This document shows, one piece after another, positions 2,857 to 53,646 of a DNA stretch of 64,000 nucleotides. The position numbers were made by a program, and so were the translations under genes. The stretch lies in assembly GCA_044868145.1 (NCBI GenBank), contig JBIOWE010000004.1, forward strand, positions 203,197 to 267,196. Reading direction: 5' to 3'. The first letter of the stretch is position 1. Every line of letters begins with the position of its first letter. Source of the stretch: Patescibacteria group bacterium. Its GTDB lineage: Bacteria > Patescibacteriota > Patescibacteriia > UBA10025 > JBIOWE01. The notes under the pieces were generated by a model that had not been told where the DNA came from, did no database searches, and worked only from the letters and a program-made list of their open reading frames with translations.

Positions 2857-4599
2857 ATGGCCAAAAACGAGGACACAATCCATCCAACAACCGATCAGGG
2901 AATTGCCGATCTCATGGGTGAAAACCACGCAAGCAAGCCAGCGGTTGCGTCCGAAGAGCAACAGCAGAAATTCAAAGAAAAGATGCAAGATATCGAGATT
3001 CGCGAAAAAGAGCGAATTGCGCGAGATCGTGCAAACGAACTTGGTATCGGTTATATCGATCTGAAAGGGTTTCCCATAGCGCCGGAAACTCTTTCCTTGA
3101 TTTCGGAAGAGCAAGCTCGAAAGTGTAGAACGGTAGCGTTTTTGCACAGTGGCAATGAGCTCCGGCTCGGCACCATAGATCCGGAAAACCCGGACGTTGT
3201 TGCGTTACTGCATGAACTGGTTGAGCGTGAGCATGTGAATGGCGCGCTGTATTATATTTCCGAACACAGTTTAGAGCATGCGCTGAAAAATTATGCACGT
3301 TTGCCAAAACATATGCAGCAGATCGGCGGTGTTGCAATAAGCGCCGCTGACTTGCAGAAGCACCAGGCGAAGATCGGTAACTTTCGCGACATAGCCGATA
3401 GCGTGTCACGTGTCTCTTTATCGGACGTGATGACCGTCATCATCGCCGGCGCGGTACAATCACGAGCGTCCGACATTCACATCGAGGCCGAGCAAGACGA
3501 CGTGAAGGTTCGCTACCGCATTGACGGCGTTCTCCATGACGTCGCTAGCATGCCGCATGACCAGTGGCCTAAAATTATTAGCCGGATAAAATTACTCGCC
3601 CATTTGAAAATTAATATATCGGACGTGCCTCAAGATGGTCGCTTCACCATTACGTTACCTAAGGAAGAAATCGACGTCCGCGTTTCATCGGTGCCAACTG
3701 CGTATGGCGAAAGCGTTGTGATGCGGTTACTCATGTCGTCGTCCGCACGCTTAACATATGATGATCTTGGCATACAGGGCGAAGCGCATCTTCTTCTCGA
3801 GCGCGAGTTAAAACGTCCGAACGGAATGATCCTTGCAACGGGGCCAACCGGATGCGGAAAAACGACAACGCTCTACGCGCTACTCAATAAACTCAACAGC
3901 CCGGAAACAAAAATCATAACTCTGGAAAACCCCGTCGAATACAAAATTAAAGGAATCAATCAAAGTCAGGTGGACACAAGTCGCGGCTATAATTTTGCAA
4001 AAGGACTACGTTCCATACTTCGTCAGGATCCGGACGTCGTGATGGTCGGCGAAGTGCGCGATCCGGAAACAGCCGAAATCGCGATCCAGGCAGCGCTCAC
4101 CGGACACCTACTGCTTTCGACCATGCATACCAACAGCGCGGCAGGAACAATCCCTCGCCTGCTCTCGATGCAAGTCAAACCCTTTCTGCTCGCACCCGCA
4201 CTCAATGTTATTATCGGCCAGCGGCTTGTCAGAAAGATATGCGAGCACTGTAAGGTTGAGAAAAAAATAGATAAAGAACAGTCATCCCGCGTGCAAGAGG
4301 TTATTGCATCGATGCCGGAACACGCAAAAAAAGAGGCCGAATCTAAACCATTAAAGTTTTACGAAGGGAAAGGCTGTCGAATATGCAGTGAAATCGGATA
4401 CCGAGGCAGAATCGGCGTTTTTGAAGTATTTGTGGTTGACGAAGACGTGGAAAAAATGATTCTCGCAGGACAAATATCCGAGCATGAACTGCAGGGCCTT
4501 GCTGTCAAAAAAGGGATGTTGACGATGGTCCAAGACGGCATCCTGAAAGCGATTGCCGGCGTAACGACCGTCCAGGAAGTGTTTAAAGTAACCGAATAG
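2857..4599 (+). CDS. pilB: Type IV pilus assembly / type II secretion ATPase PilB/GspE
   Basis: T2SSE_N-like N-terminal domain, Walker A GPTGCGKTTT, Asp/His boxes, and a C-terminal tetracysteine (CEHC...CRIC). The ORF track starts at 2836; 2857 (MAKNED) is the more likely start. Confidence 0.9.
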   Translation: MAKNEDTIHPTTDQGIADLMGENHASKPAVASEEQQQKFKEKMQDIEIREKERIARDRANELGIGYIDLKGFPIAPETLSLISEEQARKCRTVAFLHSGNELRLGTIDPENPDVVALLHELVEREHVNGALYYISEHSLEHALKNYARLPKHMQQIGGVAISAADLQKHQAKIGNFRDIADSVSRVSLSDVMTVIIAGAVQSRASDIHIEAEQDDVKVRYRIDGVLHDVASMPHDQWPKIISRIKLLAHLKINISDVPQDGRFTITLPKEEIDVRVSSVPTAYGESVVMRLLMSSSARLTYDDLGIQGEAHLLLERELKRPNGMILATGPTGCGKTTTLYALLNKLNSPETKIITLENPVEYKIKGINQSQVDTSRGYNFAKGLRSILRQDPDVVMVGEVRDPETAEIAIQAALTGHLLLSTMHTNSAAGTIPRLLSMQVKPFLLAPALNVIIGQRLVRKICEHCKVEKKIDKEQSSRVQEVIASMPEHAKKEAESKPLKFYEGKGCRICSEIGYRGRIGVFEVFVVDEDVEKMILAGQISEHELQGLAVKKGMLTMVQDGILKAIAGVTTVQEVFKVTE

Positions 4600-4627
4600 A
4601 CCTCACGGATAAAAGACCGCGTGCAAA

Positions 4628-5215
4628 TCAAGCGGCCTTTTGTTTTCCCTCTTGAAGCTTTTCGTAATGTATTTTATAGAGCTGCTCTTCCCCCACCTCG
4701 CCGGGTTGATCGCCGTGAACACGCAGCAGGAGCAGCCGAGCGTCTTTAGGGGAAATGTCGCCGCTGAGAATGAAATTCCCTTCTTGATATTCGAGCGCGC
4801 CTTCAGGTACGTCTTCGGCTGTCATTTTTGACTTCGCCGGCGTAACGCGCATGCGGCCTTCGCCCGGAAAAAAACCCAGCGCCGTGTTGGCAGGGAAGTC
4901 AGACTGTTCTTCGTAATAGGAAATAGCACGATCCGGATCAATCGTTGCGTTCGGCCACTCTGATTCCAGCCGGATGGGTGATGAATCGCCTATCAAGTTC
5001 TCAATGGATTCGCCGGCCATACCCCGCCACATCATTTTTTTCTGCTTCATTCGCTCCGCCTCTTCGCCGGTGAGACGTTCGAGCACGTCGCCATATTTTT
5101 GTTCAAACTCCTTCACCCAACGATCATACTCTTCTCGTGAGAGAGTAATGTGCTCCGGCCGCGGCACCTCATATTGTTTATGCGCGGGCATATTATTGAT
5201 TGGTAATGATCGCAT
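4628..5215 (-). CDS. Hypothetical acidic protein (195 aa) downstream of valS
   Basis: Long ORF co-oriented with valS and overlapping it by 23 nt. No recognisable motif. Confidence 0.5.
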   Translation of the reverse strand: MRSLPINNMPAHKQYEVPRPEHITLSREEYDRWVKEFEQKYGDVLERLTGEEAERMKQKKMMWRGMAGESIENLIGDSSPIRLESEWPNATIDPDRAISYYEEQSDFPANTALGFFPGEGRMRVTPAKSKMTAEDVPEGALEYQEGNFILSGDISPKDARLLLLRVHGDQPGEVGEEQLYKIHYEKLQEGKQKAA

Positions 5216-8915: not shown

Positions 8916-8993
8916 GCCGCCATCGTCTAGGCCGGTCTAGGACGCCAGGTTTTCATCCTGGTAACCCGGGTTCAAATCCCGGTGGCGGTACCA
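8916..8993 (+). tRNA. tRNA-Glu (anticodon TTC), CCA encoded
   Basis: Manual cloverleaf: acceptor GCCGCCA/TGGCGGT, anticodon stem CCAGG/CCTGG, loop TTTTCAT, T-arm CCGGG-TTCAAAT-CCCGG. Confidence 0.85.
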
Positions 8994-9135: not shown

Positions 9136-9411
9136 ATGCCAAGATATCTTGTTGAGGTTCAACACGAAGACACGGTGGGTGAGTGTGATCGAGCGGCGAG
9201 ACTGCTGCTTGAACGAGGATCACATTTTCTGACGAACGCTGATTTCGGCTGTGAGGATGGGGTACACTGTGCGTGGATTATTTTTGAAGCGAAAGATAAA
9301 GATGAGGTACGCAACACGCTGCCGCCGATCTACCGCCCCCAAGCCAAGATTATTGCGTTGAACAAGTTTACACTTGAAGAAGTAGACCGACTCAAAAAGA
9401 AACACACATAG
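9136..9411 (+). CDS. Small hypothetical protein (91 aa)
   Basis: ORF between tRNA-Glu and a degenerate copy of the tRNA-Glu 3' end. No recognisable domain. Confidence 0.4.
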   Translation: MPRYLVEVQHEDTVGECDRAARLLLERGSHFLTNADFGCEDGVHCAWIIFEAKDKDEVRNTLPPIYRPQAKIIALNKFTLEEVDRLKKKHT

Positions 9412-9496
9412 GCCGACTTCAGAAAAGATCTCTACGGGAATGGAGAAACTTTTTGTTGGCCGATATTAGTTGTTTCTGCGGTGTGCCGGGGAACGT

Positions 9497-9569
9497 CCGC
9501 CGACCTGGTCCTAGACAAGACCCAGGATGACTGGTTGGCGCTGTCAGGACCAAATCCAGGTGGCGGTAA
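9497..9569 (+). pseudogene. Degenerate tRNA-Glu-like remnant ending in a 17-nt copy of the tRNA-Glu 3' end
   Basis: AAATCCaGGTGGCGGTA at 9553-9569 matches AAATCCcGGTGGCGGTA at 8974-8990. The upstream part has a D-arm-like GGTC...GACC but cannot fold into a full cloverleaf. Confidence 0.5.
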
Positions 9570-9610
9570 TGAGGAAAAACGTTGGCCGCAAGGGTAAATT
9601 TTAGGACTCT

Positions 9611-9973
9611 ATGTCCAATAAAGTCTTTCTTAACCAGCAGGGATTTATTGAGGTTCACTCCATCGGAGATCAGACCCCCGATGTGGTCACCAGTACGAAG
9701 CAGGAGTTGGCAGTGTTGGCCAAGACACTCAGTGCCAGGGGCAAGACAGTTAACATCCTGACTGATCTTCGAAGGATTGGAAAGCAGACGGGCGCCTCGC
9801 GTGCACTGGCTAAGGATATTATGGATACCATACCGTTCCGCAAAATCGCCATCTTTGGTGCCAACCGATTCCTGAAGTATGTCGTGAACTTCATTATCAC
9901 AGGTTCTGGCCACGGCCACCATGTTCGGTACTTCAATGACCATCAATCTGCCGAGACGTGGTTAAAGACATAA
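9611..9973 (+). CDS. STAS/SpoIIAA-like small protein (paralogue of 11579-12007)
   Basis: 120 aa. The C-terminal half (IFGANRFLKYVVNFI...ETWLK) aligns with the other copy (LCGGSRFIKYLGNYFL...FAWLRE). The STAS-like fold is my assignment. Confidence 0.6.
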   Translation: MSNKVFLNQQGFIEVHSIGDQTPDVVTSTKQELAVLAKTLSARGKTVNILTDLRRIGKQTGASRALAKDIMDTIPFRKIAIFGANRFLKYVVNFIITGSGHGHHVRYFNDHQSAETWLKT

Positions 9974-10107
9974 GTCCTCCCCTGACGTTCTTCTGTAGCC
10001 TGGGCAAGGAGGAATCCCGTTCGTGCTACCAGCCAGTCTTACTTCATTATAGTGGGCACATGAATCCTTTCTGAAACGTTTTTTGTTTTTTAACGGTTTA
10101 ATAATAA

Positions 10108-10647
10108 ATGATATCTGAAGACGATATTCAGGCCATTGTTGCTTCCGCACAAGGAGGTGACGCAGACAGCGTGGCAAAGCTCTTTGAACTGTTCAGTGAT
10201 AGGATTTTTCGATTTTTTCGGGTACGCATCTCGGATACTAAAACCGCCGAAGACCTTACACAAACGGTTTTTCTTGAAATGATTCAGGCCTTGAAACGGT
10301 ATAAGAGACAGGAAGCAAAATTTTCTACATGGCTATTTCAAATCGCACGCTTTCGCCTGATTGACGAGTATCGAAAAAATCCGCCACCCCTCTCTATCGA
10401 TGAATCGTTGCAGAATCATCCATCATTAATCGTTGATCCTCCGGGCGAAATCAGCTTGCCACGCAACATTGATAGCGCATTTGCAAAACTCCCAGAGCGC
10501 TATCAGACAATACTCCATTTGCGGTTTCGTGAGGATTTTTCCTATCGAGAAGTAGCCTATAGCATGAATATTTCGGAAGTGCATGTACGCGTCTTACAGC
10601 ACCGTGCGCTCAACGCCCTTCGCAAATTATTAAACGAACATCATTAA
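10108..10647 (+). CDS. ECF-type RNA polymerase sigma factor (sigma-70 regions 2 and 4)
   Basis: Region 2 motifs (FRFFRVRI...DLTQTVFLEM...STWLFQIARFRLIDEYR) and a region 4 HTH (SYREVAYSMNISEVHVRVLQHRALNALR). Confidence 0.85.
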   Translation: MISEDDIQAIVASAQGGDADSVAKLFELFSDRIFRFFRVRISDTKTAEDLTQTVFLEMIQALKRYKRQEAKFSTWLFQIARFRLIDEYRKNPPPLSIDESLQNHPSLIVDPPGEISLPRNIDSAFAKLPERYQTILHLRFREDFSYREVAYSMNISEVHVRVLQHRALNALRKLLNEHH

Positions 10648-10657
10648 TAAATAACGT

Positions 10658-11368
10658 ATGACCTTATTTCGCCCACAAGTAAAAAAAAGCGAGGAACTGA
10701 TTGCAGCCATTCGCAAGTCCGGAACGCATACCCTCAATCCAGATTCAAGAATGAATATACGCTCTGTTGTGTTGCAAACAAACCACACCGTAACAAAGAG
10801 CGACCCCGTTCGGTATAAGAAGCACCCAATCATGGGGATATTAACTCTTAAACTTCGACCTATGACCTTAGTGCTTATTATCATGGCGCTTATTGCGCTC
10901 ACCGGAGGCACGGTGATAGCAGCTGACGCAGCGAAACCCGGTGACTCGCTTTTTGGCATCGATCGCGCTGTCGAACGTGTCCAGCTCAATTTAAGCTTAT
11001 CCGATGTCGCTAGAGCTCGAACACAGGCGGAAATTGCCGAGGAACGCTTGCGCGAACTCCAGGAGCTCCAATCTGGGGAGGATACGGACGAAGAAGATAT
11101 TGACACCGCGGAAAACGAGGCGGACACGGCGTTAAATCAAGCGCAAGATACGCTGGATGATGTCATTGAGAATATGGAATCAAAGGATAATGAACAAGCG
11201 CAGGAACGATTAGAACAAGTTCGGCAAAAATTAGAAGATCTTGATCAGGAACGCGATACTTCCCCCCACACAAATACAGAGGAACCAACCGAAACAAATA
11301 CGGAAAACGATCCATCTTCTTTCCACTCAAACGTGAACGCTCACCAGGAAAACTCAAACAGTCGATAG
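10658..11368 (+). CDS. Putative membrane-anchored anti-sigma factor (one TM, acidic coiled-coil C-terminal domain)
   Basis: It starts 11 nt after the sigma factor stop. It has a single TM helix (LVLIIMALIALTGG) followed by an acidic, coiled-coil-rich extracytoplasmic tail. The call rests on position and topology only. Confidence 0.5.
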   Translation: MTLFRPQVKKSEELIAAIRKSGTHTLNPDSRMNIRSVVLQTNHTVTKSDPVRYKKHPIMGILTLKLRPMTLVLIIMALIALTGGTVIAADAAKPGDSLFGIDRAVERVQLNLSLSDVARARTQAEIAEERLRELQELQSGEDTDEEDIDTAENEADTALNQAQDTLDDVIENMESKDNEQAQERLEQVRQKLEDLDQERDTSPHTNTEEPTETNTENDPSSFHSNVNAHQENSNSR

Positions 11369-11578
11369 GCAACTAAAGAAGGCAGTGTGCAAACTGCACG
11401 GTTAACAATACCTGAACATTACAAAGAAGTAAGAAAAAAGCAGAACATTTTAGAAGGAATATTCCGCGTACCTAGAAAACGGCGCTTGCGCCGTTTTTTA
11501 GATCCTCGACTACATGTCGTTGCAAAAGGAGTCGGGATTTTTTACTTGTGCTAGACAGTTCCTTTTATTATACTGACT

Positions 11579-12007
11579 GTGTCTCCCAACAAAAAACATA
11601 TGCCCAACGATGTGAACGCCAATAACAAAACAAACGCTGAAGTCCAGGAGAACAAGATTTATCTTGGGGACGAAGATATTATCTATGTAGAATATCATGG
11701 ACCCCAGACCTACGAAACCATACATCGCAATTTTGTAAAAATCGAAGAGATAGCAAAGGAGTTGAGGAAAGCTGGAAAGCCAGTAAAACTTTTGAATAAT
11801 ATTGGCGGTGTTACCACGCAAACGATCGGTGCGCGTAAAGCAGGGTTGGAAACCGTACGAAAGATGAAGATAGATGCCATCGCACTGTGTGGAGGCAGTC
11901 GATTCATCAAATACTTGGGCAACTACTTTCTCAAAGCAATTGGTCATCCGAACTCTCGTTCGTTCGACACCCAAGACGAGGCATTCGCATGGCTACGAGA
12001 GGTTTAA
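11579..12007 (+). CDS. STAS/SpoIIAA-like small protein (paralogue of 9611-9973)
   Basis: 142 aa. Homologous to the ORF at 9611-9973 over the C-terminal 90 aa. Sits immediately upstream of the histidine kinase. Confidence 0.6.
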   Translation: MSPNKKHMPNDVNANNKTNAEVQENKIYLGDEDIIYVEYHGPQTYETIHRNFVKIEEIAKELRKAGKPVKLLNNIGGVTTQTIGARKAGLETVRKMKIDAIALCGGSRFIKYLGNYFLKAIGHPNSRSFDTQDEAFAWLREV

Positions 12008-12011
12008 TACT

Positions 12012-13403
12012 ATGGCCCCGCAGTCAAAGCAACTGCCCGCAGAGGAATATCGTAGCTATGTCGTTCGCAGATTGGCTGGCTTAGAGCATTTATTCACGAG
12101 AGCTTCGATCGGCGATTTTTCACAAGACGTCCAATTGCCAAAAGAAGACGATGAGTTCACGACGCTCTATGCAGGTGTCCAAGTGATGATCGAAGCCGTA
12201 CGTGAAAAAGTTGGCGAGCTACAAGAGCTCAACCGACAGTTAACGGGCAAGGTTGGTGAATTACGAGAATTAACAACTCGACTCCGCACAGAACAAGCGC
12301 GGGATCGGGCAATACTGCTCGGGATGGGTGAAGGCTTGGTTGTTGTTGATGAACGCGGGATAATAACCATGGCCAATCAGGCCTTTGAAAGCATGATGGG
12401 TTGGACCAGTCAGGAAGCGATGGGAAAATACTTACCCGACGTGTTACCAGCCCAAGATGAATCTGGCCAGCGTATTCCAAATACTGAGCGGCCATTATCA
12501 AAAGCGTTCAAGATGCACGAAACGATTATGACGGGCGTAGGCGTGAATCCGTATTATTACGTCCGCCGCGATGGGACAAGATTTCCTGTCGCAATTACCG
12601 TCAGTCCATTCATGAGCCGGGGCCGCGTGATTGGCTCCATCAATGTTTTTCGTGATATCACCCGCGAACAGGATATCGACCGAGCGAAGAGTGAATTTGT
12701 GAGCTTAGCGTCGCATCAGTTGCGAACCCCCTTGACCATTATTCGTTGGTCAGCGGATATTTTAAAACGGTATGCCGGAAAATTAAGCCCTCAACAAGAA
12801 AAATACGTCACTGCGGTTGAAGAGGCGGGCCGACAAATGGTTAATCTTGTGGATGCGCTCTTGAATGTTTCTCGAATTGAGGCAGGCAGTCTTCGAATCG
12901 AGCCAAAACCCGTTGACGTAAAAAAACTTGTTGACGGCATTTTACGAGAACTCCAGCCACTGATTGATACGCAACAACTGCGCATGCGAACGCGAGTAGC
13001 AGCGGACCTTCCGAAACTACAGGTCGACCCTGAACTCACGCGTGTCGTCATTCACAATCTCATCACGAATGCCATAAAATATACCAAGCAGCGCGGTCAA
13101 ATTTTCATTACCGTGGCGCGCGACGCCGCAAACATTAAGGTTAGCGTCCGAGATACGGGAGTCGGCATACCGGTCGAGGACCAGCCAAAGATTTTTTCCA
13201 AGCTTTATCGTGCTGAAAATGTTATGCAACTCGAGCCACACGGCACCGGGCTTGGCCTTTATATCGCAAAAGCGGTGGTTGAACAATCAGGCGGCCGCAT
13301 CTGGTTCGAGTCAAAAGAAAATTCTGGGACAACGTTTACCTTCACCTTACCGCTTCGTGGCGTGCAGAAAAAGACTGGAACAAAAATAATCTCTCCGGGC
13401 TAG
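12012..13403 (+). CDS. Cytoplasmic sensor histidine kinase (coiled-coil repeat, PAS, HisKA, HATPase_c)
   Basis: No TM segment. Internal duplication KVGELQELNRQL/KVGELRELTTRL, a PAS-like segment (LVVVDERGIITMANQAFESMMGW), an H-box SHQLRTPLT, and N/G boxes (GTGLGL). The likely start is the ATG at 12012 (MAPQSK); the track ORF starts at 11874 and overlaps the upstream gene. Confidence 0.85.
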   Translation: MAPQSKQLPAEEYRSYVVRRLAGLEHLFTRASIGDFSQDVQLPKEDDEFTTLYAGVQVMIEAVREKVGELQELNRQLTGKVGELRELTTRLRTEQARDRAILLGMGEGLVVVDERGIITMANQAFESMMGWTSQEAMGKYLPDVLPAQDESGQRIPNTERPLSKAFKMHETIMTGVGVNPYYYVRRDGTRFPVAITVSPFMSRGRVIGSINVFRDITREQDIDRAKSEFVSLASHQLRTPLTIIRWSADILKRYAGKLSPQQEKYVTAVEEAGRQMVNLVDALLNVSRIEAGSLRIEPKPVDVKKLVDGILRELQPLIDTQQLRMRTRVAADLPKLQVDPELTRVVIHNLITNAIKYTKQRGQIFITVARDAANIKVSVRDTGVGIPVEDQPKIFSKLYRAENVMQLEPHGTGLGLYIAKAVVEQSGGRIWFESKENSGTTFTFTLPLRGVQKKTGTKIISPG

Positions 13404-13445
13404 CAAGCTGTTGCCCACTGCTTGTAGCTTTGGTATTATAATAAC

Positions 13446-13832
13446 ATGAAGGACAATGGGAGCAAGTCAATATTGATCGTGGAGGACGAGGTCTCACTGC
13501 TTCAGGCATTGGTTGACGTCTTTACCCTGGAAGGGTTCCATGTGTTAAGTGCTGCGAATGGGGCGGAGGGCGTAGAGATAGCAAAACAAAAGCACCCAGA
13601 TTTGATATTGCTCGACATTGTCATGCCAAGACTCGACGGGCTGGGCGTGTTGAAGAAACTTCGCGAAGATTCATGGGGCAAAACCGTACCGGTTATTATG
13701 TTAACGAACCTCTCCGATTATAAAAGCGTCGCTGACGCGCTGAAACACGGCGTGCACGACTTCCTTGTAAAAAGCAATTGGGAGATCGATAAGGTGGTTA
13801 AACTTGTCAAAAGAAAACTTCACACAGGGTAA
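13446..13832 (+). CDS. Single-domain response regulator (CheY-like receiver only)
   Basis: Receiver signature EDE, phospho-acceptor Asp (LILLDIVMP), and a T/K pair. 128 aa with no output domain. Confidence 0.85.
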   Translation: MKDNGSKSILIVEDEVSLLQALVDVFTLEGFHVLSAANGAEGVEIAKQKHPDLILLDIVMPRLDGLGVLKKLREDSWGKTVPVIMLTNLSDYKSVADALKHGVHDFLVKSNWEIDKVVKLVKRKLHTG

Positions 13833-13861: not shown

Positions 13862-14080
13862 ATGGACAACCAACCAGCACAACAAAATCAAGCGCCGCCG
13901 CAGGAGTATCAGACTCCCAAGAAGGGCTATGGCAAGCGCCCGCTATGGCAGTGGATTCTCATTTATGTCGTCGTCGGGGGTATTATCTACGCCGCAATCT
14001 ATTACTTCGTCATTGCTAAAAACGGCAGCTACAATTCGTCAAACACAAATTACAACTACACTACGAACAGCAATTATTAG
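13862..14080 (+). CDS. Small membrane protein (1 TM, N/Y-rich tail), hypothetical
   Basis: 72-aa ORF with the TM segment WILIYVVVGGIIYAAIYYFVI. Confidence 0.4.
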   Translation: MDNQPAQQNQAPPQEYQTPKKGYGKRPLWQWILIYVVVGGIIYAAIYYFVIAKNGSYNSSNTNYNYTTNSNY

Positions 14081-23393: not shown

Positions 23394-24863
23394 TTGCGTC
23401 TCTCGTTTTTCTCAAGGACCATGTCGTATACACGACGAATTGCGCATAATACAATCATTCAGATTATTGGTAAGGCGATTAGTACAGCAATCGGCGTTTT
23501 TGTTATTGCACTCCTGACCAGATATCTCGGTCGCGCCGGCTTTGGGCAGTACTATACGATTCTCGCTTTCCTCCAGATTTTCGGAGTCATCGTCGACATG
23601 GGGTTGTATATTATATTGATAAAGAAAATGTCAGAGCCTGGTACCGATCGCGACGTTCTGGCGAGCAACATCTTCACGCTCCGATTCATTTCCGCTTTTG
23701 TCTTGCTCGGACTCGCACCACTTGCCGTTTTATTTTTCCCTTACCCGGCAATTGTAAAAACCGGCGTGCTTATCGCAACGCTTTCCTATTTTGCCATTAC
23801 GCTCAATCAAACACTCACGGGTGTTTTTCAGGTTCATTTACAAATGTATAAGACGGCCACTGCTGAAGTGGTCGGCAGGATAGTTCTTCTGCTCGGAACC
23901 ATTTACGTCATTCGACAAGACGCCGGGCTTCTATGGGTGATGGTTGTCGTCGTACTCGGTAGCCTTCTGAATTTTTTCATAACATTTGCATACGCCAAGA
24001 AACTCGTGCGCATTCGCCCACGTTTCGACCTTCACCTTTGGAAGGATATTCTGCGTGAGTCATGGCCTATCGCGCTTTCGATTATCTTTAATCTTGTTTA
24101 TTTTAAAGCAGATACGATCATCCTCTCTCTTTACAAAGGAGCGGACGAGGTTGGCATCTATGGCGCAAGCTATCGAGTGCTTGAAGTACTCATCACGTTT
24201 CCCGCCATGTTTGCCGGGCTGGTGACGCCACTGCTCGCCTCGAGCTGGGCTGCGCAGGACCGCGAACGATTCAAGCGAGTGTTGCGTAAGGGATTCGACT
24301 TCATGGCCATGATCGCAATTCCACTCGTCGTTGGCACGATCTTTCTCGCCACACCCGTGATGAATCTCGTTGCACCATCATTTACGAATGCAGATAAAGT
24401 CCTACGCATCTTGATTGTAGCGACCGCTACCATTTTTATCGGAAACTTATTCGGGAACACCGTTGTGGCGCTCAATAAACAAAAAACAATGATGTGGCTG
24501 TATATTGTCGTGGCAGTGGTGTCTCTCGTCGGCTATTTAGTGCTTATTCCACGTTTTTCCTATTTCGGAGCGGCAGCGATGACCGTTGCTTCAGAGCTGA
24601 TGGTAACGATTGCAGCGCTCGTTATCGTTGGCGTCACGTCGCGCATCTGGCCATCATTTGTTTTATTCGGTAAATCGTTGATTGCCGCGGGCGTCATGGC
24701 GATTGCTCTGTCGTTCCTACAATCGTGGAATCTTTTCCTTTTGATTGTTATTGCATTAGTCGTGTATTCCGTTATGCTCTTCCTGCTTCGAGCAATTTCA
24801 AAAGAAACAATCTATGAAATCTTGCGACTGCGTGGTGGTGATAACCAGGCGACGCCCGTATGA
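23394..24863 (+). CDS. Polysaccharide biosynthesis flippase (Wzx-like, MOP superfamily)
   Basis: About 12 TM helices with an N-terminus typical of oligosaccharide flippases. The true start may be at 23421 (MSYTRR). Confidence 0.75.
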   Translation: MRLSFFSRTMSYTRRIAHNTIIQIIGKAISTAIGVFVIALLTRYLGRAGFGQYYTILAFLQIFGVIVDMGLYIILIKKMSEPGTDRDVLASNIFTLRFISAFVLLGLAPLAVLFFPYPAIVKTGVLIATLSYFAITLNQTLTGVFQVHLQMYKTATAEVVGRIVLLLGTIYVIRQDAGLLWVMVVVVLGSLLNFFITFAYAKKLVRIRPRFDLHLWKDILRESWPIALSIIFNLVYFKADTIILSLYKGADEVGIYGASYRVLEVLITFPAMFAGLVTPLLASSWAAQDRERFKRVLRKGFDFMAMIAIPLVVGTIFLATPVMNLVAPSFTNADKVLRILIVATATIFIGNLFGNTVVALNKQKTMMWLYIVVAVVSLVGYLVLIPRFSYFGAAAMTVASELMVTIAALVIVGVTSRIWPSFVLFGKSLIAAGVMAIALSFLQSWNLFLLIVIALVVYSVMLFLLRAISKETIYEILRLRGGDNQATPV

Positions 24864-26002
24864 TGAACGTTCTTATCTTAAAATTTCCCTACCAGTCACT
24901 ATTTGGCGGTGGCGAATGGCACACGTTGAAACTCGTGGAAGGGTTGCAACTCAAAGGCTACCGATTCTTCCTTGCTTCATCGTGTCCGGTGTTGTTGCGG
25001 GAATTCGCGAAGCGCCGCTGGCCGACAAAACGCTTCTGGGCTGGCAAAGAGCCGGTCAGCATGGGCGCGCTCATCTTGTTTCCGTTCACGCTACCATTCG
25101 TCGTTATTGCGCTCTTTGCTCTGCTTTTATATTACCGTGTGGCCAAGCGGGTCAAGGTGGTGTACTGTATGCAACTAACGGAAAAAATATTACTGGCGCC
25201 GTTCGCGCGAATGCTCGGTATGCGTGTTATTTGGATTGAGCACGTGACCCCTGGTCGTTGGTTTAGGGCAAATCCCCTCAAAGCACTCTATCGACGGTGC
25301 GCGCGTCTTGTAACCATTGTTGTTATCTCTGATATTATCAAAAAAGAGTATGCCGATCTGGGCGTGCCTGCGGATCGCATGGTCAGAATTTATCCGGGCG
25401 TGGATAGCGCGCACATCAAACAAAAGCAAGTTTATTGGGACAAGCCCAATCGTTTGATCGTGGGCGTGGTCGCTCGCCTTGTGCAAGAAAAGGGCATTGA
25501 ATTTTTCTTGCAAGCGCTAAAAATCGTCCGCGACATTATTCCGAATGCTCAAGCCATTGTCGTGGGTGACGGACCGGAACGAGAAAAACTTGAATGGCTA
25601 AGTCGCCAGCTGCAGTTGAAAGAGCATGTGCAATGGGTAGGCTACCAGCAGGACGTTGAGCAATGGTATAGTTATTTCGATATGTTCGTGTTGCCATCGG
25701 TCGTGCGCGAGTCGTTCGGCATTGTGCTTGTTCAGGCGATGGCAGCGGGCGTGCCAGTCATCGGCTCTCGCCTTGGGGGCATACGTGAAATTATCGATGA
25801 TGGCAGCACAGGCCTTCTGGCGGAGCCCGGCTCGAGCCAGTCGATAGCGGATTGCATCATGCGTTTGTATACAGACAAAGCGCTGACGCAGTCAATCGTG
25901 TCTGCGGCACATGAAAAGGTTCAGCAATCATTTAGTATAGATTCAATGCTTCGCGATTTTTCGATTATTTTTTCAGGCAAACACCATGGACCACGCGATT
26001 GA
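24860..26002 (+). CDS. Glycosyltransferase family 4 (GT-B fold)
   Basis: GT4 C-terminal motif (ESFGIVLVQAMAAGVPVIGSRLGGIREIIDDGSTGLL). Start overlaps the flippase stop by 4 nt. Confidence 0.85.
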   Translation: MMNVLILKFPYQSLFGGGEWHTLKLVEGLQLKGYRFFLASSCPVLLREFAKRRWPTKRFWAGKEPVSMGALILFPFTLPFVVIALFALLLYYRVAKRVKVVYCMQLTEKILLAPFARMLGMRVIWIEHVTPGRWFRANPLKALYRRCARLVTIVVISDIIKKEYADLGVPADRMVRIYPGVDSAHIKQKQVYWDKPNRLIVGVVARLVQEKGIEFFLQALKIVRDIIPNAQAIVVGDGPEREKLEWLSRQLQLKEHVQWVGYQQDVEQWYSYFDMFVLPSVVRESFGIVLVQAMAAGVPVIGSRLGGIREIIDDGSTGLLAEPGSSQSIADCIMRLYTDKALTQSIVSAAHEKVQQSFSIDSMLRDFSIIFSGKHHGPRD

Positions 26003-27458
26003 ACTTCCGCATAAACAAAAGTATCTCTTGGTCGGTGCTGCGCTTCTGGCCGCTCTGATGCTTAGTGTGCTTAACGCGTTTACGCCCCCATTATTTTTTC
26101 TCGCGGGACTGGCGTTTATCGCGCTTGCCGTTCTGATATTCCGTTCGCCTCTTTTTGGCATCGCAATCGTTGGCTTTTTGCTGCCGTTTGAGCGTATAGG
26201 CGCATACGAACTTGGTAGAACGACAGTTCGATTAAGCCAGGTTTTTCTCATTGTTACTATCGCAGCGTTTCTTGCGTACGTAGTACGTAAGCGTGATCGC
26301 TTCATTGGCTCGAACCCGCTGCTCATCGCGCTACTTTTGTTTATCGCGGCGAACGTGTTGTCATTGGTGAATACCGTCAACCTTACTCGGTCCGTTTTTG
26401 TGCTCATATTTACTGCTTTCACGGTGGTTCTTGCCTGGCTTGTGCCGGCTATCGTCAAAACGCAGAGATCCATTCGAACAATCATTCTCGTGTTGCTCGC
26501 AAGTTGCTTCTTGGTAAGCGCGTTCGGTATTTTTCAATTTTTTGGAGACATGGTTGGCCTGCCGACGTCCATCACCGGCCTGCGTGATCTCTATACAAAA
26601 GACGTGCTGGGGTTCCCGCGTGTGCAATCCACGGCGTATGAACCACTGTATTTTGCCAATTACCTTTTACTGCCTCTCAGTCTCGCATTCGCACTTTTTT
26701 TATCGAAACGACAGCAATTGAAATCATCCTGGCTCCTGATCATACTTATTCTCGGAACGGCGAGCTTTGTCCTTACCGTATCGCGCGGGGGCTACATCGC
26801 GTTTACTGTCTCCATGCTCGTGATTTGTATCGCGTATTTTCGTAAAGTGTTTCGGCTGCGCAACATCGTCATATTTGTGGCTGCCACGACCTTCCTTTGG
26901 TGGTTTGTGGTGAAAGCGCTCGGTTTTGGCGGCGGCCTCTTTACTCTCGATACGTTTAAAGAACATGTGGGCAATGTGTTTTATGGCGCCTCATTTAATG
27001 AGCGCGTGTATACGCTCGAGCAAGCCCAAACTGCATTTCGCGAGCACCCCCTTGTTGGTATCGGCGTCGGCGCGTTTGGTCCGTATGTTGCGCCCCATCC
27101 ATATTACATGCCGAAAGATGGCTGGAAAATCGTGAACAACGAGTTCGTTGAGATTCTTGCGGAAACGGGCTTGCTCGGTTTTCTTACGTTTTTTCTTGTT
27201 GTGCTCGTTCTCATCGTGCGCTCGATTAAGGCGATTTTGAGATCACGTGACCCGTACTTGAAAGCTATTATGGTTGCGTTGTTCGCGGCATTTATCGGCG
27301 TGCTCGTACAATACCAAACATTCTCCACGCTCTATATTATGCATGTATGGTTTTTGATTGGTTTGATGGTGGCGGCGCAGAATATAATCCTGGAAGGGGC
27401 AACCCTTCGGGTTTCCCCTTCCCACGCCTCCCCTTCCTCTCCCGAGATGAAAGCTTGA
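25986..27458 (+). CDS. O-antigen ligase/polymerase-like membrane protein (Wzy_C domain), copy 1
   Basis: Polytopic membrane protein with a Wzy_C-like motif (LTVSRGGYIAFTVSML). Confidence 0.7.
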   Translation: MDHAIELPHKQKYLLVGAALLAALMLSVLNAFTPPLFFLAGLAFIALAVLIFRSPLFGIAIVGFLLPFERIGAYELGRTTVRLSQVFLIVTIAAFLAYVVRKRDRFIGSNPLLIALLLFIAANVLSLVNTVNLTRSVFVLIFTAFTVVLAWLVPAIVKTQRSIRTIILVLLASCFLVSAFGIFQFFGDMVGLPTSITGLRDLYTKDVLGFPRVQSTAYEPLYFANYLLLPLSLAFALFLSKRQQLKSSWLLIILILGTASFVLTVSRGGYIAFTVSMLVICIAYFRKVFRLRNIVIFVAATTFLWWFVVKALGFGGGLFTLDTFKEHVGNVFYGASFNERVYTLEQAQTAFREHPLVGIGVGAFGPYVAPHPYYMPKDGWKIVNNEFVEILAETGLLGFLTFFLVVLVLIVRSIKAILRSRDPYLKAIMVALFAAFIGVLVQYQTFSTLYIMHVWFLIGLMVAAQNIILEGATLRVSPSHASPSSPEMKA

Positions 27459-27679
27459 TTGGCTCGTTTCGGGCACCCACGAGACCCGAAACATCGCGTG
27501 GTATGTTCACGCTTGTCAGCTCGATTCATGCAGCAGAAAATAAATTTTCTGCTACGCGACATGACGCTTGTTACGCAATCCATCCGTAGACGAAGATTTA
27601 TCTTCGTCTTTGTAAACCCGTGGCTGATTTTGTCGATTAACCGATTAACTGATTAACAAGATCGTGTTACAATTCAACC

Positions 27680-28939
27680 ATGTTTGAAACGATTTTGATT
27701 ATCATTTTTACTCTGTTCTTCTTTTGGGTTGCTTGGTGGAAGCTCGATTGGGCGATTGCGCTCACCATAGTATTCCTTCCTACCTATCTTTTGCGCTTCC
27801 AAGTATGGTTCGTACCGATGACGATTTTGGAGATCATGCTGCTCGCGGTATTCGTCGTTTGGCTTATTCAATCCTTGTTACGTAAAATACCGATTCAATT
27901 TCCTTGGCGCTTCCTAATAGCATTGTTCGTATTGGCCGGCGTAGCCGCTATTGTGGTCTCGCCAGACACACGCCAGGCGCTTGGTTTATGGAAGGCATAT
28001 ATCCTAGAGCCCGTATTGTTTTTTATAGCGTTCGTCAATACGATAAAAACCGAACAACAGGTGCGAACGGTGATCTGGGCGCTTGGTGCGCTCGCCGTGC
28101 TCGTTGGCTATGGTACGTTCATACAATATCTCGGGCTCGCGCCGATTCCCGAACCGTATGGCCTCGAAATACCGATACGCGCCACGTCGGTATTCCCCTT
28201 TCCAACGGCAGTTGGCAAGCTTATTGGTCCATTACTTGGTTTGTTCTTGGGCCTTGCGTTTGTCAGAGGTACATTAGAAAGCGAACCGTGGCGACGAAAA
28301 ATGTTCCTTTGGGGCGTGATCGCGTTTTCGATCATTGCCTTAGTGTTGTCTTTCTCGCGTGGGGCGCTCATCGGTGCGTTTGTTGCTTTAATCTTCGTTA
28401 GCTTCTTCAGTCAATGGAAAAAATGGCTGTGGTTAGGAATTGTCGGACTAATAGTGCTGACACTCGTTTTTCCATTTACGAGGAATGAGCTTGTGTCCGT
28501 GTTCAATGTGCGTGACACGTCTGCAGATGTGCATCGTGTGCTCTGGAAAGGCGCAATCCGTATCGTGAAAGCTAATCCAATTACCGGCACGGGGCTTGCG
28601 AGCTTTCCTATTGTGTATGAAAAGTATAAAGAAGCGTCGCATACTGAATTTTTTCCGAACCCGGACCACCTTATTCTCACGCTCTGGATTGAGATGGGGC
28701 TTGCTGGCCTGATTATTTTTGCTTGGCTTGTCGTGAAATTTTTCCGCGCGGGCTGTCTCGCGCTCAGAAATGCGCAGCCATGGCAGCGCTCCCTTGTGGT
28801 CGGCTTGATGGCCGCGATGGTGGCGATCATTGTGCACGGATTTTTTGATACGCCGTATTTTAAGAATGACTTGGCTGTCGAGTTTTGGGTGTTGGTGGGG
28901 TTGATGGTACTTATACGACGTTTACCAACATCCTCTTGA
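27680..28939 (+). CDS. O-antigen ligase/polymerase-like membrane protein (Wzy_C domain), copy 2
   Basis: Polytopic membrane protein with motif LSFSRGALIGAFVALIF, paralogous in architecture to the gene at 25986-27458. Confidence 0.7.
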   Translation: MFETILIIIFTLFFFWVAWWKLDWAIALTIVFLPTYLLRFQVWFVPMTILEIMLLAVFVVWLIQSLLRKIPIQFPWRFLIALFVLAGVAAIVVSPDTRQALGLWKAYILEPVLFFIAFVNTIKTEQQVRTVIWALGALAVLVGYGTFIQYLGLAPIPEPYGLEIPIRATSVFPFPTAVGKLIGPLLGLFLGLAFVRGTLESEPWRRKMFLWGVIAFSIIALVLSFSRGALIGAFVALIFVSFFSQWKKWLWLGIVGLIVLTLVFPFTRNELVSVFNVRDTSADVHRVLWKGAIRIVKANPITGTGLASFPIVYEKYKEASHTEFFPNPDHLILTLWIEMGLAGLIIFAWLVVKFFRAGCLALRNAQPWQRSLVVGLMAAMVAIIVHGFFDTPYFKNDLAVEFWVLVGLMVLIRRLPTSS

Positions 28940-30737: not shown

Positions 30738-30809
30738 TGGGCGAGGATGGAGTCGAACCATCGCCCCCGTGTTTATAAGACACGTGCTCCACCGTTGAGC
30801 TACTCGCCC
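30738..30809 (-). tRNA. tRNA-Ile (anticodon TAT, i.e. UAU, decoding AUA). Unusual for bacteria. No CCA encoded
   Basis: Manual fold of the minus strand: acceptor GGGCGAG/CTCGCCC, D-arm GCTC-AACGGTG-GAGC, anticodon stem CGTGT/ACACG with loop CTTATAA (U33 and A37 present), T-arm GATGG-TTCGACT-CCATC. Confidence 0.7.
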
Positions 30810-51292: not shown

Positions 51293-51411
51293 TCCCTTAA
51301 GTGACCTTTGACAATGAACATGTGACAGGAACCTGGTATGTAACCCATACCAGTCGGGAACGTCATAGTTGAAGCAATGAGCGATGGTGAATGCCATCCT
51401 TATTGTTTCTT

Positions 51412-52921
<1,510 letters not shown>

Positions 52922-53115
52922 AGGGAGAATAATGATTGTTTGTCGACATCAGCTCTGCTGATGACTTTAGTTCGTGGGCGTTCCCATTCTTGTCACATTT
53001 TCATTGCCAAAACCTCGACACGTTCGAGGTAAACCAAAACACATTGGCTTTACAATGCCAATGTTTTTTGTTAGCATGGAACAGTAATTGGCAAAATGAC
53101 CCCGCATAAAAATTT

Positions 53116-53190
53116 GGGTGCGTAGCTCAGTGGTAGAGCACGTCACTGATAATGACGGGGTCGGAGGTTCGATCCCTCCCGCACCCACCA
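53116..53190 (+). tRNA. tRNA-Ile (anticodon GAT), CCA encoded, in the 16S downstream spacer
   Basis: GGGTGCGTAGCTCAGTGGTAGAGCACGTCACTGATAATGACGGGGTCGGAGGTTCGATCCCTCCCGCACCCACCA. Anticodon loop CTGATAA. Confidence 0.9.
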
Positions 53191-53196
53191 ACCCCA

Positions 53197-53440
53197 AATT
53201 TTGTACGGGGCAAGTAATGACGAGGTTTAAGGTCTCAGGCCTGTCCCGTAAAAACGAGCATAGCGAATTTTGTGCGGGATTCGAATCCTGAGCCGCCCAC
53301 CGAGGGTGAAAAGAGCGCGCTTGCCCCGCAGGCGAGCGACGTAAAGTCGCGTTGCGACCACGTCGCTCTACGCGAAGCGAATTGTGCGGGGTCACTGATA
53401 ATGACGAGGTCGTCCCGCCAAGGCGGACCGTACCCACCAG
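53197..53440 (+). repeat. Three tRNA-Ile-derived degenerate repeats (AATTTTGTRCGGGG...TAATGACGAGGT) flanking a stem-loop-rich 150-nt insert that contains a GGATTCGAATCC T-loop-like palindrome
   Basis: Copies start at 53197, 53266 and 53379. The third reproduces the tRNA-Ile anticodon arm (GTCACTGATAATGAC) and 3' terminus (ACCCACCA) but has a non-tRNA hairpin in place of the T-arm. Strong hairpin GAGCGACG...CGTCGCTC at 53325-53369. Confidence 0.5.
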
Positions 53441-53467
53441 TGAGGATTATTATAAAAACCACAAAGT

Positions 53468-53539
53468 GCCGAGGTAGCTCAGTGGTAGAGCGCTGCCCTG
53501 AAGAGGCAGGCGTGGCCAGTTCGATTCTGGCCCTCGGCA
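53468..53539 (+). tRNA. tRNA-Phe (anticodon GAA), no CCA encoded
   Basis: GCCGAGGTAGCTCAGTGGTAGAGCGCTGCCCTGAAGAGGCAGGCGTGGCCAGTTCGATTCTGGCCCTCGGCA. Anticodon stem CTGCC/GGCAG, loop CTGAAGA. Confidence 0.85.
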
Positions 53540-53646
53540 CTTTGTGGTTCTTTGTTTAAGTAAGCATCTTCTCAATTCTGGCAGTTCATTGGGTCGAGGA
53601 GGCACCCCGACGTAAGGAGGGTAGCTTCGCAACTGTATAACAAAAA

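Follow-up and report, generated by a model that had tools for sequence, protein, structure and literature searches.

A STAS-fold protein family linked to soluble, HAMP-first histidine kinases in a signalling cluster of a Patescibacteria group bacterium

Which partner do two small STAS-like proteins serve when one is encoded in front of a sigma factor and the other in front of a histidine kinase? The question is raised by a cluster of six signalling genes in a 64,000-nucleotide (nt) stretch of DNA from a Patescibacteria group bacterium (contig JBIOWE010000004.1, positions 203,197 to 267,196; hereafter the window). Paralogue A precedes a sigma factor of the extracytoplasmic function (ECF) type and a single-pass membrane protein with a DUF5667 domain, and paralogue B precedes a soluble histidine kinase and a receiver-only response regulator. 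A preliminary description made from the sequence alone saw here a partner-switching-like layer feeding both the sigma factor and a phosphorelay. That idea holds up well for the kinase arm, if partner switching is taken in the loose sense of a STAS protein acting with a GHKL-fold partner, and poorly for the sigma arm. The best explanation for the whole, to which we assign a probability of roughly 0.6, is that B, and probably A, serve the kinase as separate input or regulatory subunits and are not classical anti-anti-sigma factors.

Because STAS alignments contain no conserved stretch of 7-10 residues, related loci were searched for with the kinase and the receiver as anchors instead of the STAS protein. 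The conserved unit is a three-part two-component module. It comprises one or two STAS-fold proteins, a kinase that is soluble and has a HAMP-like module as its first domain, and a stand-alone receiver, and the loci that carry it come from metagenome-assembled genomes (MAGs) nearly all labelled Patescibacteria or candidate phyla radiation (CPR). In loci L003, L004 and L005/L006 a STAS gene is followed by a PAS kinase and a receiver-only regulator, and L003 and L005/L006 show overlaps of 4 nt. L007 has two tandem STAS genes before the kinase and regulator, and L023, from a MAG labelled Saccharimonadales, a STAS gene before a kinase of 597 amino acids (aa) and two receivers. A truncated STAS gene precedes a split kinase in L063 and a STAS gene precedes a kinase N-terminus in L088, while L008 reads STAS gene, 110-aa HAMP/coiled-coil open reading frame (ORF), MASE1-PAS kinase, regulator, sigma factor and DUF5667 protein. 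On four further short contigs a co-directional downstream gene overlaps the STAS gene. All family members on readable contigs stand in a signalling context save two A-type cases (A itself and P0003, its closest homologue with 66% identity), and the recurring order of STAS gene, kinase and receiver bears out the earlier view of the small paralogues as a conserved family tied to signalling genes. The family is not exclusively tied to the HAMP-PAS kinase, given the context in L089 (228-1649), where a LytTR response regulator overlaps the STAS gene and a GAF-like protein, judged by eye and without a Pfam match, follows it.

The strongest evidence that the STAS proteins work with the N-terminal end of the kinase comes from natural fusions and translational coupling. 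In four family clusters (P0074, P0051, P0077 and P0122) a short linker joins the STAS domain to this HAMP-like module (E between 4e-15 and 1e-13), and P0077 runs on into a PAS domain. A hidden Markov model of this N-terminal module matched 12 loci at E<=1e-5, all of them HAMP-first; in each of the 12 the module lies at the extreme N-terminus or forms a separate small ORF, never behind a membrane segment. A STAS gene is found immediately upstream in 9 of the 11 module loci with a visible upstream region, a count for which L003 and L008 were corrected by hand because overlapping genes had been missed by the script. When whole kinases served as anchors, only 3/80 genome loci, nearly all from Patescibacteria or CPR MAGs, carried a STAS gene; as a negative control, the 80 receiver-anchored metagenome loci had neither STAS, sigma nor DUF5667 genes. 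These sequences suggest that the STAS protein amounts to a first domain of the kinase that can be detached. B is linked functionally to the kinase by conserved adjacency, translational coupling and the STAS-HAMP fusions, and A is probably a kinase regulator too, since it keeps the consensus that in other lineages occurs immediately upstream of kinases. The tandem genes in L007 and two proteins with two STAS domains each (P0010 and P0152) further indicate that two STAS units may work as a pair, which fits A and B acting together.

The STAS-like identity of the small proteins, proposed earlier from the letters alone, was confirmed by profile and structure searches. Judged by the Pfam gathering thresholds, A belongs to SpoIIAA-like PF11964 (31.3 bits, cut-off 25) and DUF7793 (PF25056; 26.5 bits, cut-off 26), and so does B (28.6 and 28.5 bits, respectively). 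A and B are 28% identical across 118 residues (E 3e-16) and are true paralogues with the common C-terminal block that had been described, RF[LI]KY..N.....GH..R.F....A..WL. The AlphaFold2 (AF2) model of A, built from a 101-sequence alignment, has the beta-alpha topology of STAS domains with a predicted local distance difference test score (pLDDT) of 96.7, and Foldseek matched it to PDB structures of the DUF3478 protein 2q3l, SpoIIAA, RsbS, RsbV and others (among them 1tid, 1thn, 1h4z and 6m36) with probability 1.0 and template modelling scores of 0.59-0.68. The small proteins have a STAS fold. Among solved structures, PDB 3bl4 matched the family profile best by sequence (E 3.5e-4), PDB sequence searches with the single proteins returned noise only, and similarity between the family and SpoIIAA was undetectable by hhalign (probability 0.7%). 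In a word-indexed protein database A matched only 1 protein, B 2 and the family alignment 12; it was an exhaustive profile search that revealed the family, which numbers 1,070 representative clusters at a threshold of E<=1e-3 (377 at E<=1e-10), almost all with a length of about 120 aa.

Conserved positions of the family are N3, G19, Q21(T22), L50, D52, R64, K78, A80, G83, F108, A114, W117 and L118. A retains the family consensus residues, and B belongs to a divergent subtype with the motif DAIA[LV]CGG, also present in the L008 protein. In SpoIIAA the phosphorylated serine marks the start of helix alpha2 (PMC2954212). The corresponding N-cap position 60, with the helix starting at residue 61 in our model, is a mixture of D39/T30/N16/S8 among 101 members, so that the phospho-acceptor of SpoIIAA is not conserved; position 61 is S28/L16/A16/T10. 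Both A and B have Thr60 at the structural position of the SpoIIAA phospho-serine. The family is not built around a phospho-switch, but Thr60 may still allow phosphorylation of A and B themselves.

The kinase is a soluble PAS histidine kinase, as described before: HisKA (62 bits) and HATPase_c (105 bits) are recognised by Pfam, H235 is invariant, and no transmembrane segment was found (maximum 19-residue hydropathy 1.29). Its N-terminal module, common to the STAS-linked kinases, reads L..L.P.F..AS.GDFS.DV.IP...DEF..LY.GVQ.MLD.IREK and follows the helix-connector-helix pattern of a HAMP domain; we call it HAMP-like since the Pfam HAMP match has an E-value of only 0.027. An internally duplicated coiled coil had been noted in this protein, and there is indeed a 14-residue (two-heptad) insertion relative to four orthologues that resembles its neighbour (KVGELQELNRQLTG vs KVGELRELTTRLRT, identical at 8/14 residues); at the DNA level Tandem Repeats Finder detected no tandem repeat beneath it. 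The regulator is a CheY-like receiver without an output domain, again in agreement with the first assignment (Response_reg 95 bits, no second domain in Pfam), and its translation has D14, D57, T87 and K109. Kinase and regulator combine an H-box and HATPase_c with a receiver Asp pocket, Thr and Lys, and are encoded by adjacent genes. Between the window and L008 identity is 66% for the regulator, 52% for the kinase and 48% for B. The nearest matches to the kinase, the regulator and the STAS proteins also point to an origin in Patescibacteria/CPR.

In L008, L009 and L063, which are the nearest relatives, the kinase is split. The HAMP-like/coiled-coil part is a separate ORF of 110-117 aa in L008 and L009 and of 316 aa in L063, and it overlaps the start of a membrane kinase (L008 4760-7272, L009 4691-7236, L063 4716-7143). 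The downstream kinase is MASE1-PAS-HisKA-HATPase in L008, a similar protein of 731 aa in L009 (a likeness judged without Pfam), and PAS-HisKA-HATPase with a hydrophobic N-terminus in L063. This arrangement is a split version of the window kinase.

How does the sigma factor fit in? The six genes lie on the plus strand at the positions given in the preliminary description (Table 1), which spoke of seven co-oriented genes and listed these six, with orientation and identities correct. The minimal spacing noted there does not hold throughout: there are 134 nt between A and the sigma gene, 10 nt between the sigma and DUF5667 genes, 231 nt between the DUF5667 gene and B, 4 nt between B and the kinase, and 42 nt between the kinase and the regulator. 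In the 231-nt gap, 3' of the DUF5667 gene, lies a strong, terminator-like hairpin, AAAACGGCGC-TT-GCGCCGTTTTTT. The two wide gaps and the hairpin point to three likely transcription units and not one operon. Together with sigma-70-like promoter matches upstream of B and upstream of the regulator, they also set the ECF sigma/DUF5667 pair, which sits between the two STAS genes, apart as a unit separate from the kinase module. Beginning 29 nt past the receiver gene is a 72-aa single-pass membrane ORF (13862-14080, +) with a Q/N/Y-rich tail, which had no significant family match and was not seen behind the receiver in related loci.

Table 1. Positions of the genes, kinase domains and terminator-like hairpin of the signalling cluster within the window.
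Feature	Position	Strand	Remarks and basis
Paralogue A, STAS-fold protein	9611-9973	+	120 aa; ORF, Pfam, AF2, Foldseek
ECF-type sigma factor	10108-10647	+	179 aa; regions 2 and 4 only; Pfam Sigma70_r2 + r4, TIGR02937
Single-pass membrane protein, extracytoplasmic DUF5667	10658-11368	+	236 aa; presumed cognate anti-sigma factor
Terminator-like GC-rich hairpin, A and T runs at flanks	11474-11499		Inverted repeat between sigma/DUF5667 unit and B
Paralogue B, STAS-fold protein	11600-12007	+	135 aa from ATG 11600 (start in the public gene call); alternative GTG 11579 (142 aa)
Soluble histidine kinase	12012-13403	+	463 aa; PAS, HisKA, HATPase_c (Pfam)
Kinase HAMP-like N-terminal domain	~12048-12209	+	Orthologue alignment
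Kinase coiled coil with 14-residue insertion	~12207-12290	+	Orthologue alignment
Kinase PAS	12300-12662	+	Pfam
Kinase HisKA	12684-12887	+	Pfam
Kinase HATPase_c	13026-13358	+	Pfam
Receiver-only response regulator	13446-13832	+	128 aa; Pfam Response_reg

The assignment as an ECF sigma factor stands (TIGR02937 94.5 bits vs a cut-off of 42.9, sigma-70 regions 2 and 4 only). For its neighbour, proposed as a single-pass candidate anti-sigma factor, the one hydrophobic segment (residues ~71-89), the position directly behind the sigma gene and the recurrent pairing agree with the proposal, but no recognisable anti-sigma domain (zf-HC2, RskA class I) was found in its short cytoplasmic N-terminus with Pfam at E<=1, and the domain that is recognised is DUF5667 (E 3e-14). 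A short helix, L[TN]x[DS][ED]R...L, was seen by eye in the N-termini of the DUF5667 proteins of the window, L008 and L009. The order of sigma gene and DUF5667 gene is conserved in these three loci, which supports a cognate relationship, and we presume from sequence that the two proteins are a sigma/anti-sigma pair. No convincing ECF-type promoter motif is common to the regions upstream of the three sigma genes.

Across loci the presence of a sigma gene and that of a STAS gene are uncorrelated. Both occur in the window and L008; a sigma gene without a STAS gene is found in L009, L013, L014, L026, L030, L042, L073 and L082, and a STAS gene without a sigma gene in L003, L004, L005, L007, L023 and L063. 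A single small clade, made up of the window, L008 and L009, has the sigma/DUF5667 pair next to the kinase module, in differing gene order and regardless of whether a STAS gene is present. In other Patescibacteria loci (L013 4617-7778; L014 3749-6809; L026 41-3183; L082 5164-7541) an ECF-like sigma factor, often of ~205 aa with an N-terminal extension, is encoded together with one to three receiver-only regulators and a PAS kinase that is soluble and has a coiled coil, and none of these four has an obvious anti-sigma gene.

In the mechanism that we propose, B, and by homology probably A, would bind the kinase physically and dock most likely at or beside its N-terminal HAMP-like module, so that the STAS protein would occupy the place held by the transmembrane sensor in membrane kinases. 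Its binding would bias the balance between kinase and phosphatase activity, triggered by a ligand or partner that the STAS fold binds. The kinase would then phosphorylate Asp57 of the receiver-only regulator, which would act through protein-protein contacts. The sigma factor and the DUF5667 protein would form a sigma/membrane anti-sigma unit of the conventional kind that ends at a terminator of its own, possibly coupled to the phosphorelay, for instance by the phosphorylated receiver as a connector.

Several observations weigh against this explanation. In the window A is followed by the sigma gene and does not adjoin a kinase, and P0003, which lies behind a PadR gene and a 455-aa gene and before a convergent gene, lacks both a kinase and a sigma gene on its contig of 3 kb; more distant A-like members precede kinases (L023, L063). 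L009 and L081 have a HAMP-first module without a STAS gene, which indicates that the STAS protein is dispensable or replaceable. The AF2 model of the fusion P0077, based on a four-sequence alignment, reached a pLDDT of 54, and below 50 in the HAMP region, too low for a STAS-HAMP interface to be seen. The neighbourhoods represent about six independent lineages and not hundreds, most of the 1,070 clusters not being placed on contigs. Finally, the sigma/DUF5667 pair stands beside kinase and regulator in three related genomes and in two gene orders, which hints at a link between them.

The loci without a STAS gene differ in what takes its position. In L081 (5390-7431) a gene for a DUF2378 protein lies immediately upstream of the HAMP-first kinase, in place of the STAS gene. 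L008 and L009 are otherwise syntenic sister loci with tRNA-Pro and tRNA-Arg genes upstream; L008 carries the STAS gene (4351-4755), whereas L009 has an unrelated reverse-strand ORF at the syntenic position (4108-4690), where no STAS pseudogene or remnant was found.

A rival idea is that kinase and receiver control the ECF sigma factor post-translationally, with the phosphorylated receiver binding the anti-sigma or the sigma factor and the STAS proteins only tuning the kinase. This logic would resemble that of PhyR but without sigma mimicry. A receiver-only regulator needs a protein target, kinase, regulator, sigma and DUF5667 genes are contiguous in L008 and L009, and L013, L014, L026 and L082 lack an obvious anti-sigma factor. 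Sigma genes also lie <=6 kb from related PAS kinases in 9/80 genome loci, several of them directly adjacent together with receiver-only regulators; this figure has no background rate, so that enrichment is unproven. Between the window and L008, however, the sigma factors are 28% and the DUF5667 proteins 26% identical, far below the values for regulator, kinase and B, so that the two pairs may not be orthologues. A sigma gene is absent from the vicinity of most STAS-kinase modules, and none was detectable in the 80 receiver-anchored metagenome loci. We regard this form of control as unlikely.

Quite improbable, in our judgement, is the partner switch proper, in which A would antagonise the DUF5667 anti-sigma factor and free the ECF sigma factor, B would do the equivalent on the kinase, and one input would serve both. 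The fold is that of SpoIIAA, RsbV and RsbS, A lies directly upstream of the sigma gene, the sigma/DUF5667 and kinase/regulator genes are neighbours in the window, L008 and L009, and Thr60 caps helix alpha2 in A and B. The known partner of such STAS proteins is nevertheless a GHKL kinase and not a DUF5667 membrane protein, and position 60 is not a conserved phospho-site among the 101 members. Pfam scans of the larger window ORFs between ~100 and 58,000 (short ORFs, the final 6 kb of the window and all other parts of the 414-kb contig lie outside them) detected no RsbW/SpoIIAB-type serine kinase and no PP2C/SpoIIE-type phosphatase. No RsbT-type protein was found, HATPase_c_2 appearing only as a weak secondary match on the histidine kinase; a PhyR_sigma-like match occurred only on the sigma factor (E 0.1) and not on the regulator. 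The 134-nt gap separates A from the sigma gene, and the hairpin closes the sigma/DUF5667 unit before B. The corresponding part of the preliminary description is not supported, and A does not seem to act as a partner switch on the sigma/anti-sigma pair: P0003 has no sigma neighbour (relatives of A adjoin kinases or neither gene, never sigma genes), L009 has the sigma/DUF5667 pair and no STAS gene, and there are STAS-kinase modules without a sigma gene in L003, L004, L005, L007 and L023.

A related arrangement, in which non-phosphorylated STAS proteins and the receiver act as diffusible connectors between the soluble HAMP-PAS kinase and the DUF5667 anti-sigma factor, seems to us equally doubtful. 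If true, it would wire a phosphorelay to an ECF sigma factor in a manner so far undescribed, combining partner switching with two-component signalling without a serine kinase, a PP2C phosphatase or a PhyR-type sigma mimic. Least probable is that the STAS-like proteins are carriers of small molecules or lipids without direct regulatory contact to the kinase, their adjacency reflecting shared physiology: PF11964 membership and the proposal of CRAL-TRIO-like ligand carriage for 2ook and 2q3l by the Joint Center for Structural Genomics (JCSG; PMC2954212) speak for it, but the covalent STAS-HAMP(-PAS) fusions in four clusters, the stop and start codons that overlap with the kinase in several lineages and the specificity for one type of kinase, HAMP-first, argue against it, and ligand binding would be compatible with a kinase subunit and is no alternative to it.

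The SpoIIAA-SpoIIAB-sigmaF and RsbV-RsbW-sigmaB systems likewise have a small single-domain protein of STAS fold beside a GHKL-fold ATPase and near a sigma factor. Here, however, the partner with the GHKL fold is no serine-kinase anti-sigma factor but a genuine histidine kinase of the HisKA type, whose substrate is a receiver. A PP2C phosphatase was not detected in the ORFs scanned, conservation is lacking at the site of the phospho-serine, the sigma factor is of the ECF type and the anti-sigma candidate is a membrane protein; the conserved serine, RsbW-type kinase and PP2C phosphatase that define classical partner switching are not features of this cluster. In RsbK/RsbY-RsbV of Bacillus cereus a two-component system controls a STAS antagonist, through a receiver with a PP2C phosphatase and in the presence of an RsbW-type anti-sigma factor. 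RsfS/RsfR-RsfB of Mycobacterium smegmatis also joins a histidine kinase, a receiver and a STAS protein in a pathway that ends at a sigma factor; there the STAS protein is dephosphorylated by a PP2C phosphatase carried on the receiver, and an anti-sigma factor of the RsbW type is present (PMC10950880). In contrast to both, the receiver here lacks an output domain, and the STAS gene lies ahead of the kinase gene or is fused to the kinase N-terminus, which suggests that the STAS protein acts as an input.

The DUF3478/PF11964 proteins of Shewanella (2ook, 2q3l) and 3bl4 share Pfam family and fold with A and B. In DUF3478 proteins the phospho-serine is replaced, mostly by Asp or Glu, and for the Shewanella members, encoded in UspA and TonB neighbourhoods, a role as ligand carriers with weak membrane association was proposed (PMC2954212). 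The family described here resembles them in its Asp-rich phospho-serine position, but unlike them is tied, and sometimes fused, to HAMP-first kinases. PhyR-NepR-EcfG (ECF15), the general stress response of Alphaproteobacteria, and the groups ECF39 and ECF234, which are linked to two-component systems, similarly encode an ECF sigma factor, an anti-sigma factor, a histidine kinase and receivers together (PMC8999054). In comparison with PhyR-NepR-EcfG, the receiver of the window lacks a sigma-mimic domain, the kinase is HisKA and not HWE/HisKA2, and the anti-sigma candidate is a DUF5667 membrane protein and not NepR. The regulator also differs from CseB in having no DNA-binding domain, and no RsbT-type kinase was found such as acts with the RsbR/RsbS STAS pair in the RsbRST stressosome. 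Sda, KipI and FixT are small kinase-binding regulators. MlaB is a STAS domain that serves as a non-phosphorylated regulatory subunit on the MlaF ATPase (PMC7367683). We liken the STAS proteins of the window to these four, small proteins that bind an ATPase or kinase directly and so modulate it, while not being phosphorylated themselves. Sda, KipI and FixT are unrelated to the family, and MlaB shares the fold. To our knowledge, none of the four has been reported as fused to a HAMP domain.

The cluster is flanked by housekeeping genes, those for TsaD, LeuRS, tRNA-Glu, HSP20, a VanW-like protein, an M17 peptidase and RuvB, and farther along the window are FtsH, S1, GyrA, NusB, RNase III, SMC, S16, TrmD and a 16S rRNA gene. 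The preliminary description considered the cluster possibly accessory because of a tRNA-Glu gene with a duplicated 3' end. A second copy is present, but it is a decayed full-length copy (~9490-9570), 578 nt downstream of the intact gene (8916-8993), which matches the last 18 nt at 17/18 positions and is called by neither ARAGORN nor Rfam. The two copies bracket only a 91-aa ORF (9136-9411) without a Pfam or NCBIfam match and do not enclose the cluster; with housekeeping neighbours, a GC content of 0.44-0.50 vs 0.48 and no integrase seen, a genomic island was rejected.

Other features of the window lie apart from the cluster. A surface-polysaccharide cluster (23394-28939, +) encodes a Polysacc_synt/MatE-like flippase, a GT4 glycosyltransferase and two paralogous Wzy_C (O-antigen-ligase-like) membrane proteins. 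ARAGORN called a tRNA-Ile with a UAU anticodon at 30738-30809 (-), which is unusual, since a modified CAU anticodon is the norm in bacteria. At 51410-53540 lie a complete 16S rRNA gene and, behind it, tRNA-Ile(GAU) and tRNA-Phe, and since the remaining ~11 kb of the window contain no 23S rRNA, the rRNA genes appear to be unlinked.

Bacteria of the CPR have small genomes and few regulators, and our literature searches found no study of their signalling. For PF11964/DUF7793 the literature found was confined to structural-genomics description with no signalling role proposed, and nothing relevant on DUF5667, DUF7793 or PF11964 appeared beyond the JCSG papers. Neither did the searches, whose coverage is incomplete and which make novelty provisional, find a description of a STAS-HAMP kinase association. 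The locus illustrates that a STAS gene near a sigma gene is insufficient to infer partner switching. As a detachable STAS-type input subunit for soluble HAMP-first kinases, a family of ~1,000 clusters would gain a specific and testable role, and the module, split in some natural cases and fused in others, lends itself to the question of what drives a HAMP domain when there is no membrane sensor.

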